From Candidatus Aenigmatarchaeota archaeon (GTDB lineage Archaea; Aenigmatarchaeota; Aenigmatarchaeia; CG10238-14; SpSt-28), in the NCBI GenBank assembly GCA_038997355.1, contig JAWBAC010000001.1, forward strand, positions 4,820-68,819: a stretch of DNA of 64,000 bases, written 5' to 3'. Within the stretch, counting starts at the first letter, position 1, and each line of letters starts with the position of its first letter. Below are positions 9,770 through 35,961 of this stretch, piece after piece. The notes beneath the pieces were generated by a model. The model had not been told where the DNA came from. It searched no databases and was given only the letters and a program-made list of their open reading frames with translations. A program made the translations under genes and the position numbers.

Positions 9770-9870
9770 TGCCGGGGGTGGGATTTGAACCCACGACCTC
9801 CGCGTTTCTATCATCAATATCAAAGCTCATTTGATATGAGCGCGGCGTTCTGCCGCTAAACTACCCCGGC
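9770..9870 (-). tRNA. tRNA-Met elongator (anticodon CAT) with ~29-nt intron. Could alternatively be tRNA-Ile2 (CAU)
   Basis: Reverse complement: GCCGGGG acceptor, anticodon stem CCGCG/CGCGG, loop CTCATA|intron|A. Intron ATGAG pairs with exon CTCAT (bulge-helix-bulge). T-loop TTCAAAT. Confidence 0.8.
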
Positions 9871-15150: not shown

Positions 15151-15248
15151 GGGGCCGTAGTCTAGCCAGGCAGGACGACGGGCTCCAGAAATGGAGCTCT
15201 GATAAATGAGGAAACCCGTTAACCCGGGTTCAAATCCCGGCGGCCCCA
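15151..15248 (+). tRNA. tRNA-Trp (anticodon CCA) with ~25-nt intron
   Basis: GGGGCCG/CGGCCCC acceptor. Anticodon stem ACGGG/CCCGT. Loop CTCCAG|intron AATGGAGCTCTGATAAATGAGGAAA|A. Intron AATGGAG pairs with exon CTCCA. T-loop TTCAAAT. Confidence 0.8.
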
Positions 15249-17102: not shown

Positions 17103-17241
17103 CGCCGGGGGTGGGATTTGAACCCACGCGGGCTTATCGCCCACCGGCTTTCTCTTTGATATTTTACTCATCATTACTCAGCTACCCCAGAGCTTATCAT
17201 AACTCGAGGCCGGCGCCCTGGTCCAGCTAGGCGACCCCGGC
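17103..17241 (-). tRNA. tRNA-Ser (anticodon CGA) with ~53-nt intron and long variable arm
   Basis: Reverse complement: GCCGGGG acceptor, 3-bp D stem, anticodon stem CCGGC/GCCGG, loop CTCGAG|intron|A. Variable arm TGGGCGATAAGCCCGCG. T-loop TTCAAAT. Confidence 0.75.
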
Positions 17242-17275: not shown

Positions 17276-17330
17276 TTTATGAAGAATGCCGCCGCATCTG
17301 ATAAATGATGAAATGGAGTACCTCTGATTA
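17276..17330 (+). ncRNA. box C/D sRNA candidate (2'-O-methylation guide)
   Basis: Canonical archaeal layout. C box ATGAAGA (17279-85). 12-nt guide ATGCCGCCGCAT. D' box CTGA (17298-301). 3-nt spacer. C' box ATGATGA (17305-11). 12-nt guide AATGGAGTACCT. D box CTGA (17324-27). Confidence 0.6.
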
Positions 17331-18532: not shown

Positions 18533-18651
18533 TGCGGGGGTCGCCTAGCCTGGTCAAGGGCGGCGGGCTTAAGGTAAAACTTAAGCTTTGATATCGATGA
18601 TAAGATACCCGCTGGCTTAGTGCCGTCGTGGGTTCAAATCCCACCCCCCGC
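18533..18651 (+). tRNA. tRNA-Leu (anticodon TAA) with ~34-nt intron and long variable arm
   Basis: GCGGGGG/CCCCCGC acceptor. Anticodon stem GCGGG/CCCGC. Loop CTTAAG|intron|A. Variable arm TGGCTTAGTGCCGTCG. T-loop TTCAAAT. Confidence 0.8.
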
Positions 18652-18748
18652 AAGATTCTTATGAACTTTAAGTTTTGTTTTATTGTGTTTAATATGTTTA
18701 ACTTTTAAGAAAATATAAATATATTTTCTTTCATCTATAATATTCTCT

Positions 18749-23713: not shown

Positions 23714-24604
23714 ATGAGAAAAATTGCATATGATAAACCAATAGATATAAACGAAATAGGAAAATCAACAGCAATCAAAATTTTAAATGATATTCCTGGA
23801 CCAGTTTACGTAGAAGAAAAAGTAGATGGAGAATTACACGATACAATAACTGCCTGTATCGAGAAAAACAAATATCTTCTTATCTGCTTTTTTGGTGAAA
23901 AAATGCTAACTAAAGATGTTCACATACTAACTTATAAAATTCCTGCTAAAAGATTAGTTTTTGATATAGCTATCTTTTCTGAGAATTTAGATAATCCCTA
24001 TTATCTTAAACCAGAAAAAGCCGCTTTACTTACATTTTTAACTGGACAAAAGTTTGTTCCAATAGATAAAAAATTCAACAGCGGAAAAGAAGTTTCGATA
24101 GAAATTTTGGAAGTTCTTCTATATATGAACTCTAATTTCGAAACCTTTATAAATCCAAAACTCTTTGAAAAAAATAAAGAAACATTTAACAAACTTTTTA
24201 ACGAAGCTTATAATAATAGAGAAGGTATTGTAATTAAAGTCTATGAAAAACCAGAAAAGCCAATATTTATAAAATATGTTAGAGACGAGTTTGAAGAAGC
24301 AAAAAGAATATTCCCTAGAGAAAAATATCCATATCCGTATTTTTATTCAGAAAACATTATAACTCCTTACGACTATGAAAAATTTGTAAAGTATTGGAAA
24401 AATATATTTAAAACTTTAGGTATCTATGAAGAAGCTACAAAAATAGCTGAAAAATTGGGAGGCATGAAAAAAATTTACGAACAGTATCTAGAGAATTATA
24501 ACTTAGAAGAAGTGGAAGAAATTTTTTCTAATTTAAATCCTGAAATAAAAAATTTGCTTGACAAAATACTAAATAAGATTTTTAATAAAATAGAAAAATT
24601 ATAA
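23714..24604 (+). CDS. covalent nucleotidyltransferase superfamily protein (ATP-dependent RNA/DNA ligase-like), uncharacterised small family
   Basis: 296 aa. Motif I VEEKVDGEL (KxDG). Motif III LVFDIAIF. Motif IV REGIVIKV (EGhhhK). Motif V IFIKYVR. Spacing matches the ligase/capping-enzyme NTase domain. Helical C-terminus. Confidence 0.5.
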   Translation: MRKIAYDKPIDINEIGKSTAIKILNDIPGPVYVEEKVDGELHDTITACIEKNKYLLICFFGEKMLTKDVHILTYKIPAKRLVFDIAIFSENLDNPYYLKPEKAALLTFLTGQKFVPIDKKFNSGKEVSIEILEVLLYMNSNFETFINPKLFEKNKETFNKLFNEAYNNREGIVIKVYEKPEKPIFIKYVRDEFEEAKRIFPREKYPYPYFYSENIITPYDYEKFVKYWKNIFKTLGIYEEATKIAEKLGGMKKIYEQYLENYNLEEVEEIFSNLNPEIKNLLDKILNKIFNKIEKL

Positions 24605-25310: not shown

Positions 25311-25880
25311 ATGATAATTTTAGGTGTTTGTGGTTATGCAGCTAGTGGCAAATCAGAAGTTTCTAATTATTTAAAAGAAAAGTATAATTTTGAAGTATTT
25401 GAATTTTCAGATATAATAGAAGAAGAAGCAAAAAAATTAGGATTAATTTCAGAGAATTTAAATCTTGAAGAGAAAAAGAGAAAGTTAAGTGAAGTAGGAA
25501 AAATAATAAGAGAAAAATTTGGTAGAAAAGATATATTTGCAATAAAAATAATTGAAAAAATAAAAGAAAAGAATTTAGAAAAAGTTGTTGTTAGTGGAAT
25601 AAGAAGCTTAGATGAATATTTTGCATTCAAAAACGCTTTTGGAAAAAACTTTTATTTAATTTTTTTAGATGTTGATGCAAAAATAAGATATGAAAGAAGA
25701 AAACTTCAAGATAAGAGTTTTAATTTAAGTTTTGAAGAATTTTTAGAAAGAGATAAAAGAGATGAAAAAGAATTAAACCTTAAAGAATTAAAAGACTTAT
25801 CAGATTTCATTATAGAAAATAATTCTAGCTTAGAAGATTTGTATAAAAAAATCGATTTAATAATTTCTTCTCTAATTTAA
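25311..25880 (+). CDS. P-loop nucleotide kinase, UPF0200/dephospho-CoA-kinase-like family
   Basis: 189 aa. MIILGVCGYAASGKSEVSNYL is a Walker A motif. Overall pattern matches archaeal UPF0200 proteins. Confidence 0.5.
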   Translation: MIILGVCGYAASGKSEVSNYLKEKYNFEVFEFSDIIEEEAKKLGLISENLNLEEKKRKLSEVGKIIREKFGRKDIFAIKIIEKIKEKNLEKVVVSGIRSLDEYFAFKNAFGKNFYLIFLDVDAKIRYERRKLQDKSFNLSFEEFLERDKRDEKELNLKELKDLSDFIIENNSSLEDLYKKIDLIISSLI

Positions 25881-25884
25881 ATTA

Positions 25885-25937
25885 TAGATGAAGACACGAC
25901 GGTCAACTGAAAGATGAAGAAGGGTGTCGAATTCTGA
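25885..25937 (+). ncRNA. box C/D sRNA candidate
   Basis: C box ATGAAGA (25888-94). 12-nt guide CACGACGGTCAA. D' box CTGA (25907-10). C' box ATGAAGA (25914-20). 13-nt guide AGGGTGTCGAATT. D box CTGA (25934-37). Lies in an intergenic gap. Confidence 0.5.
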
Positions 25938-26243
25938 TCACTTATTTTCCTCAGCCTCTAATAACATTTTACAAGCTAATATGTGGCTACATTCTTCTTT
26001 TTTTAACGAAAACCACTTACAATCGCAACTAAATTCATCTTTAATTTTATCGTAAATTACATAATGAATATCTTCATAACCTTTAACTGTAAAATGTATC
26101 CTTAATTCATTTTCAAAATCTTTAGTGACTCTGCCTTCTCTTAACAATCTTCTTGCTTTAATCTTCTTCCAAGCATATCTTATTCCCATAAAAAGATTAT
26201 TCGATTCTCTCAAATTGATATATAACTCTTTTTTTAAACACAT
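25938..26243 (-). CDS. SWIM-type zinc finger protein
   Basis: 101 aa. CDCKWFSLKKEECSHILAC fits the CxC...CxH SWIM signature. Confidence 0.45.
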   Translation of the reverse strand: MCLKKELYINLRESNNLFMGIRYAWKKIKARRLLREGRVTKDFENELRIHFTVKGYEDIHYVIYDKIKDEFSCDCKWFSLKKEECSHILACKMLLEAEENK

Positions 26244-27493: not shown

Positions 27494-27593
27494 AGCCGGG
27501 GCCGGGATTCGAACCCGGGATCTGCGGGTTTCTATCGATCATTTTTCACAAAACCCTGCAGCCCGCCGCGTGAAGCCACTCCGCCACCCCGGC
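27494..27593 (-). tRNA. tRNA-Cys (anticodon GCA) with ~26-nt intron
   Basis: Reverse complement: GCCGGGG acceptor. Anticodon stem GCGGG/CCCGC. Loop CTGCAG|intron|A. T-loop TTCGAAT. Discriminator U73 typical of tRNA-Cys. Confidence 0.8.
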
Positions 27594-35822: not shown

Positions 35823-35961
35823 CGCCGGGGGTGGGATTTGAACCCACGCGGGCTTATCGCCCAGCGGATTTCTTTCTCTTTTACTTTTTGCATCATTAAA
35901 TCAGCTTCACGCCAATCTATCACTCAAGTCCGCCGCCCTGGGCCAGCTAGGCGACCCCGGC
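35823..35961 (-). tRNA. tRNA-Ser (anticodon TGA) with ~53-nt intron and long variable arm
   Basis: Near-identical exons to the 17103..17241 gene. Anticodon stem GCGGA/TCCGC. Loop CTTGAG|intron|A. Variable arm TGGGCGATAAGCCCGCG. Confidence 0.75.

Follow-up and report, generated by a model that had tools for sequence, protein, structure and literature searches.

To our knowledge, the box C/D guide RNAs of DPANN archaea have been catalogued experimentally essentially only in Nanoarchaeum equitans, and a literature search found no work on C/D guide RNAs specific to the Aenigmatarchaeota. The N. equitans sRNAs are compact, come from a small AT-rich DPANN genome, and their "ends are not base-paired"; most of them lack a promoter of their own, are processed from longer transcripts, and lie packed against neighboring genes or overlap them (Randau 2012, Genome Biol 13:R63; PMC3491384). 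The Pyrococcus families of Rfam (sR3, RF01133; sR35; sR20; sR1; snoPyro_CD, RF00095) have lengths of 53–58 nt and guides spaced at 12 nt. Three further guide RNAs bear on the locus described here: IHOsR27 of the crenarchaeon Ignicoccus hospitalis, a C/D sRNA verified by RNA-seq (Dennis et al. 2015, BMC Genomics 16:632), Plasmodium snoR20 (Rfam RF01596), and yeast snR73, which guides 25S Cm2959 in the region of helices 90–93.

Here, we analyze a 64,000-nucleotide stretch of archaeal DNA, referred to as the window. Positions 25888–25937 of its plus strand very probably form the 50-base gene for an archaeal box C/D sRNA that would guide 2'-O-methylation. Judged from the sequence and its homologues, this is almost certainly a genuine and ordinary box C/D sRNA gene, so far unannotated, in a little-studied phylum. 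The kinase-like protein encoded upstream is 100% identical to an NCBI protein labeled "MAG: Candidatus Aenigmatarchaeota archaeon", and its homologues (45–88% identity) belong to the same phylum. Isolate names suggest that the related MAGs derive from hot-spring samples. Among the RNA genes that Rfam identifies in the window are an SRP RNA of archaeal type and many tRNA genes with introns.

Architecture of the element

The predicted RNA and the two genes that flank it are arranged as follows; all boxes, both guides, and the spacer were read directly from the sequence.

25311–25880, plus strand: upstream P-loop kinase-like gene (Pfam AAA_18/AAA_17; weak matches to CoaE and cytidylate kinase)
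25884–25939, plus strand: whole predicted box C/D sRNA, about 50–56 nt with approximate ends (Rfam C/D alignments span 25884–25939, the regular-expression architecture 25888–25937)
25888–25894, plus strand: box C, AUGAAGA (RUGAUGA with U5 changed to A, a 6/7 match; G·A core intact)
25895–25906, plus strand: D' guide, 12 nt, CACGACGGTCAA (RNA CACGACGGUCAA), with predicted 23S rRNA target UAGACCGUCGUG
25907–25910, plus strand: box D', CUGA
25911–25913, plus strand: D'–C' spacer AAG, 3 nt, loop of the internal k-loop
25914–25920, plus strand: box C', AUGAAGA
25921–25933, plus strand: D guide, 13 nt, AGGGTGTCGAATT (RNA AGGGUGUCGAAUU)
25934–25937, plus strand: box D, CUGA, abutting the stop codon of the convergent gene
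25938–26243, minus strand: downstream convergent ORF of 101 amino acids (SWIM-like match of 16.3 bits against a cut-off of 19.6)

The segments measure 7-12-4-3-7-13-4 nt in the order C, guide, D', spacer, C', guide, D. This is the organization expected of archaeal box C/D sRNAs. Terminal boxes C and D (25888–25894 and 25934–25937) provide an intact G·A/A·G core, D' precedes C' across a loop (AAG) that falls within the 3–9 nt of the class, and the guides are close to 12 nt in length (12 and 13 nt in the element itself; both 12 nt in the homologues L020, L003, and L044). Re-reading of the sequence bore out the letters, box order, and 12/13-nt guides given in the initial annotation, which began the element at 25885, 3 nt upstream of the C box. 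The gap of 57 nt that it described is likewise exact: positions 25881–25937 separate the stop codons of two convergent ORFs, and the element begins 8 nt past the kinase stop codon (25878–25880). Of the labels it gave to the neighboring genes, a kinase upstream holds in the form of the Pfam AAA_18/AAA_17 assignment, whereas the SWIM finger downstream falls below the cut-off. An alternative register of the boxes, xxGAUGA with 15/16-nt spacers, was rejected because its spacing departs from the 12-nt rule, whereas reading the boxes as AUGAAGA retains RUGA-GA and yields 12/13 nt.

The element has a GC content of 0.42 compared with about 0.2 in its surroundings and 26.6% in the window. The minimum free energy of the RNA is no better than that of shuffled sequences (z = -0.16). 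Folding, which had been proposed as a way to reveal a terminal stem, produced none, and no 5'/3' complementarity conserved among the homologues was seen in the aligned loci. Neither the missing stem nor the unremarkable fold is unusual in a compact archaeal sRNA (PMC3491384).

Expressed as a regular expression, the full C/D'/C'/D architecture occurs at two sites in the 64 kb, 25888–25937 and 17279–17327; two much looser expressions yielded no further sites in the window. The half-motif ATGAAGA-N10-14-CTGA is found four times in the window against 0.24 expected, and no shuffle reached four. Words rich in TGA and GA are frequent at 26.6% GC, and an ATGAAGA-N-CTGA match lies inside a gene at 24426, so that functionless, chance box-like words in an AT-rich spacer have to be weighed. 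Simulation argues against this explanation: the strict architecture appeared in 0 of 300 simulated windows (first-order Markov, 64 kb) and the relaxed pattern at 0.03 per window.

At gathering thresholds, Rfam returned no C/D family match anywhere in the window. In a relaxed search of a 101-nt region, about 15 archaeal C/D families aligned end to end with 25884–25939, on the plus strand only. The best of these matches, sR3 (RF01133), scored 23.1 bits (E = 1.6e-4 in the 101-nt search) against a gathering score of 41. With all scores below gathering, the element is a member of no existing Rfam C/D family. Sub-threshold scores are expected because these families are guide-specific; they support the class and not membership of a family. 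The same holds for the comparison with the Pyrococcus families, which share the length, box order, and 12-nt spacing of the element but carry other guides and score 10–23 bits against gathering scores of 36–60.

Conservation in related lineages

Relatives of the locus were gathered by three routes, through the kinase gene, through a metagenome scan for the DNA pattern of the sRNA, and through the GTPase gene that lies beside the second candidate sRNA of the window (candidate 1, 17279–17327). Most of what the pattern scan retrieved was fortuitous similarity in bacterial coding DNA of high GC content; L044 and L064 alone are real. The element and its homologues read as follows.

Window, L001, and L002 (kinase 100% identical): ATGAAGA CACGACGGTCAA CTGA AAG ATGAAGA AGGGTGTCGAATT CTGA
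L015 and L016 (kinase 88%): ATGAAGA CACGACGGTCAG CAGA GAG ATGAAGA AGGGTGTCGAATT CTGA
L020–L022 and L064 (kinase 74%): ATGAAGA AACGACGGTCAA CTGA ATTG ATGAAGA AAGGCTATTTAG CAGA
L003 and L004 (kinase 71%): ATGAAGA AACGACGGTCAA CAGA GATG ATGAAGA AAAACTATTTAT CAGA
L044 (28%-GC metagenome contig, where the element has an unrelated ORF on one side and a histone-like gene on the other): ATGATGA AACGACGGTCAA CGGA TGA ATGAAGA CAACGCTCCGCA CTGA

Five distinct homologues are thus available, four of them directly after the kinase gene (at 100, 88, 74, and 71% identity) and one, L044, in another context. Across their alignment, the invariant columns fall in box C (ATGA-GA), the D' guide (ACGACGGTCA), box D' (C-GA), and the whole of C'; counted by position, 6/7 are conserved in box C, 10/10 in the guide core ACGACGGUCA, and 7/7 in C'. 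Box C is unchanged in the four syntenic versions and reads AUGAUGA in L044. Box D' is CUGA, CAGA, or CGGA and box D is CUGA or CAGA, with C and GA invariant. The D guide, both flanks, and the spacer (3–4 nt) vary among the homologues. At the nucleotide level, the half of the element from C to C' is 88–91% identical compared with 79% for the kinase coding sequence; identity of the D guide drops to 38–54%. The 88% relative L015 has the very same D guide, to which those of L020, L003, and L044 are unrelated. Two halves of one sRNA therefore differ greatly in rate, the D' guide being frozen and the D guide turning over.

The element is absent from the syntenic place in L005–L010, L018, and L019, and such patchy presence is consistent with the mobility already described for sRNA genes in archaea (PMC3491384). 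The initial annotation had named loss of the boxes in relatives as an observation that would count against it; the boxes are kept while the flanks and one guide drift. It is this pattern, in which the elements persist across lineages with randomized flanks, that effectively refutes an origin by chance. Complementarity of one guide to rRNA, described below, speaks in the same direction, and chance box-like words are hardly credible as an explanation.

The D' guide and a site in 23S rRNA

Neither the window nor the related loci, which total about 150 kb, contained rRNA of the lineage itself, and the rRNAs of Haloarcula marismortui served as a surrogate along which all guides were slid. The H. 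marismortui locus was found with an archaeal 23S peptidyl-transferase sequence (31/31 match to haloarchaeal replicons) and is, according to Rfam, a complete 16S-23S-5S operon. In archaeal sRNAs, the methylated nucleotide pairs with the fifth guide base upstream of box D or D' (the N+5 rule).

The reverse complement of the D' guide is TTGACCGTCGTG. Against the H. marismortui 23S rRNA, its unique best match is UAGACCGUCGUG, with Watson-Crick pairs at 11/12 positions, an uninterrupted run of 10, and a paired N+5 nucleotide; the next best match has 9 pairs. An A·A mismatch occurs at guide position 2, which would face A2587, and position 1 is paired. Counting from D' (A1, A2, C3, U4, G5), N+5 is the leading C of GACC. 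When aligned with E. coli K-12 rrlB, this predicted methylation position corresponds to A2590, between U2585 and A2602. On surrogate rRNAs, the duplex thus exceeds the complement of at least about 9 bp with a Watson-Crick N+5 pair that is usual for guides of this class. The initial annotation had recommended matching the guides against rRNA and had regarded a lack of complementary targets as damaging; one guide, D', proved complementary to a conserved 23S site in surrogate archaeal rRNAs.

M. maripaludis, M. kandleri, and I. hospitalis also have the target sequence in their 23S rRNAs; those of Pyrobaculum, Thermoproteus, and Sulfolobus read GUCGCG at this place, and that of N. equitans has diverged to AGUACGCCGCG (Dennis 2015 supplement). 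It occurs in eukaryotic LSU fragments as well, and a scan of viral contigs for the target returned those fragments alone. N. equitans could not use the D' guide, because its own 23S site has diverged; N. equitans, which belongs to another phylum, shows that the site can diverge within DPANN, so a D' target inferred from other archaea may not hold in the organism studied here.

Known guides address the same nucleotide. The D' guide of IHOsR27, ACGACGGUCUC followed by CUGA, has a 9-nt core (ACGACGGUC) in common with that of the element, and its N+5 picks the same C in the 23S sequence GAC*CGUCGU. I. hospitalis is a crenarchaeon with a GC-rich genome, however, and the second guide, the boxes, and the genomic context of IHOsR27 differ. 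The likeness is compatible with common descent as well as with convergence on the same site. The consensus of Plasmodium snoR20, CACGACGGUCUU followed by CUGA, selects the same N+5 nucleotide, and the Rfam match of this family to the element scores no more than 18.8 bits, well short of its gathering score of 45. The eukaryotic snoRNAs snR73 and snoR20 differ from the element in that they are at least 82 nt long, have degenerate C'/D' boxes, and possess terminal stems.

We take yeast 25S C2959 to correspond to E. coli 2590, on the basis of the standard offset in which U2921 equals U2552; this mapping also leans on the gap-free alignment of the region between E. coli and H. marismortui. Helices 90–93 are a pan-archaeal hotspot of predicted methylation (PMC4644070; PMC7994747). 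These comparisons support a D' guide that addresses a 23S site adjoining the peptidyl-transferase center, which is a known guide target elsewhere.

The D guide

The search for a target of the D guide was less productive. A search of the whole window gave 8 matches against 4.3 expected, none of them convincing, and no convincing target was found in the 12 tRNAs and SRP RNA of the window or in the 16S, 23S, and 5S rRNAs of H. marismortui. In the rRNAs of seven archaea (Dennis 2015 supplement), no 8-mer of the complement AAUUCGACACCCU occurs in a meaningful place. Of the best rRNA matches, which carry a mismatch or a G·U at N+5 or close to it, the pairing with AAGUUGACGCCCU at position 1532 of H. 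marismortui 23S rRNA has a G·U at N+5, and that with the universal 16S sequence GAUUAGAUACCC has a G·A there. On the guess of a target in the region of helix 58, which is variable, we scanned metagenomes for GGTTAATATTCC-N10-40-AATTCGACACCCT and obtained no match; this negative is uninformative, because the organism is absent from the collection, from which its own sRNA was not returned. The D guide could be an orphan guide; alternatively, its partner may lie in some variable part of the organism's own RNA.

Among the 13 tRNAs of the organism that were covered, the closest match, to the T-arm of tRNA-Phe (G52–U64), comprises 9 Watson-Crick and 2 G·U pairs out of 13, with two central mismatches, and places N+5 exactly on C56. 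In Pyrobaculum, a guide RNP stands in for the protein enzyme aTrm56 in C56 methylation. By analogy, the D guide might direct 2'-O-methylation of C56 in the T-loop of at least one tRNA, a role to which we assign a slim chance.

The behavior of the D guide raises a different view of the particle, in which the RNP would act on rRNA only as a chaperone, without methylation, or in which only the D' half would be active and the D half vestigial. Chaperone roles have been proposed for sRNA-rRNA pairing (PMC4644070). The D guide is not conserved, becomes AT-rich in L003 (AAAACUAUUUAU), and has no target in the rRNAs and tRNAs searched. It is, however, identical in the 88% relative, and the D' duplex combines 10 contiguous pairs with a Watson-Crick N+5, which is the standard requirement for methylation, and the equivalent site is methylated in yeast. 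We consider this view quite unlikely and favor the element as a methylation guide.

Expression and the predicted particle

A transcript of the element would arise by read-through from the upstream kinase-like gene, followed by trimming, as its genomic context suggests. No separate promoter is recognizable in the AT-rich upstream sequence. A conserved TTAAAT just ahead of box C was weighed as a promoter element and dismissed, because at 7–12 nt from the box it is too near for an archaeal box A, which lies at about -26. By comparison with other members of the class, L7Ae would bind the terminal C/D kink-turn and the internal C'/D' k-loop, and a Nop5 dimer with two copies of fibrillarin would complete the particle. 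The D' guide would then pair with 23S UAGACCGUCGUG, to which its complementarity is observed, and fibrillarin would place a methyl group on the ribose of the C at the E. coli-equivalent position 2590, mapped to yeast Cm2959. A motif scan and tblastn searches with M. jannaschii queries detected no genes for fibrillarin, L7Ae, or Nop5 in the 64 kb of the window or in the loci retrieved. Fibrillarin (COG1889) and Nop5 (COG1498) belong to a set of 38 single-copy genes used to assess the completeness of archaeal genomes (PMC9258230).

The position of the element 8 nt after the kinase stop codon, its place behind that gene in all syntenic lineages, and the lack of a recognized upstream promoter would also suit a kink-turn that L7Ae binds within the 3' untranslated region of the mRNA for the kinase-like protein, with a regulatory or stabilizing role in place of guided methylation. 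Binding of L7Ae to mRNA k-turns is known in archaea (PMC5539422, PMC6298567). Such a regulatory k-turn, however, requires neither two box pairs spaced at 12/13 nt nor an invariant 10-nt complement to rRNA, and the homologue L044 follows a different gene. Moreover, sRNAs commonly arise by co-transcription with an mRNA (PMC3491384). We regard the mRNA element as very unlikely, and the box C/D sRNA remains our preferred reading.

The variant C box and the kink-turn

The C box AUGAAGA, shared by both C-type boxes of the element, recurs in candidate 1, as the initial annotation pointed out. The agreement holds for box C of candidate 1 but not for its C' box, which is the canonical ATGATGA. The further proposal that ATGAAGA is the organism's own C-box consensus was not sustained, as RUGAAGA is common in verified archaeal sRNAs and AUGAUGA is also present in the lineage. 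Among 489 RNA-seq-verified archaeal sRNAs, ATGAAGA occurs 90 times, GTGAAGA 64 times, ATGATGA 109 times, and GTGATGA 125 times; RUGAAGA is found in 154 occurrences compared with 234 for RUGAUGA (Dennis et al. 2015). AUGAAGA is not exceptional, because RUGAAGA is frequent among verified archaeal sRNAs. Nor is it exclusive within the clade, in which C' of candidate 1 and C of L044 are AUGAUGA.

In the variant C box, U is replaced by A at k-turn position 3b; the G·A/A·G pairs and the 4b:4n G:C pair are retained. Position 2 of D and D' switches among U, A, and G (CUGA, CAGA, CGGA) in the orthologues L003, L015, and L020 and in other homologues. The 3b:3n pair is accordingly A:U, A:A, or A:G, compared with the usual U:U, opposite an A that is invariant at position 5 of C and C' with the exception of the L044 box C, AUGAUGA. 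An older archaeal set showed a strong preference for U:U at 3b:3n (Ashraf et al. 2017, PMC5689011), and a Watson-Crick 3b:3n pair blocks folding in metal ions alone (McPhee et al. 2014, PMC4382518); C/D k-turns fold upon binding of L7Ae (PMC5689011). On the homologues aligned here, this particular clade of Aenigmatarchaeota may carry a fixed A at 3b, paired with U, A, or G at 3n in place of U:U. If true, the fixed A could alter the folding or recognition of the k-turn.

A sister sRNA and neighboring tRNA genes

The second site with the full architecture in the window reads as follows.

17279–17327, plus strand: candidate 1, sister box C/D sRNA, AUGAAGA AUGCCGCCGCAU CUGA UAA AUGAUGA AAUGGAGUACCU CUGA

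Candidate 1 abuts the stop codon of a convergent YchF-like GTPase gene. It is conserved beside that gene in the relatives L081, L083, and L085 (GTPase identities of 90% and 75%), in which the boxes are invariant and the guides nearly so. Its Rfam C/D matches are sub-threshold, the best being sR2 at 25.3 bits, and no targets of its guides were found in H. marismortui rRNA or the tRNAs of the window. By its sequence, candidate 1 is a second predicted box C/D sRNA of the same design, equally conserved.

The tRNA genes of the window have features of their own. Five of the 12 detected by Rfam are 98–139 nt long (9770–9870, 15151–15248, 27494–27593, 17103–17241, and 35823–35961) and carry introns, given these lengths. 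ARAGORN found only seven tRNAs, one of which was misread with a 4-base anticodon. The genes at 17103–17241 and 35823–35961, both on the minus strand, are 139 nt long, agree at their 5' and 3' termini, and contain a long insert. In the gene at 17103–17241, the Rfam alignment skips 57 nt, and the insert contains the box-like series UAUGAUAA ... CUGA ... AUGAUGA, which resembles intron-encoded C/D sRNAs; these motifs have no Rfam C/D support and were set aside. On the L044 contig, a second C/D-like pattern at 1464–1512 on the minus strand (ATGATGA ... ATGA ... ATGATAA ... CGGA) overlaps an intron-containing tRNA gene at 1382–1477 on the same strand. This pattern could mark an sRNA associated with the intron, or it could be spurious. 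Finally, a GC-rich island at 18534–18652 on the plus strand reads as an intron-containing tRNA-Leu(UAA)-like gene, with acceptor GCGGGGG, anticodon loop CUUAAGG followed by some 33 inserted nucleotides, a long variable arm, and T-arm GGGTTCAAATCCC; it was missed by Rfam (at gathering thresholds and at E <= 0.5) and by ARAGORN.

Implications

The element is an unannotated RNA gene to be added to the annotation of these MAGs, and it changes no general concept. Together with its sister, it indicates that thermophilic Aenigmatarchaeota keep conventional methylation guides. The predicted site, shared by guides of Aenigmatarchaeota, Ignicoccus, Plasmodium, and yeast, would provide a data point for a methylation that is either ancient or repeatedly selected.
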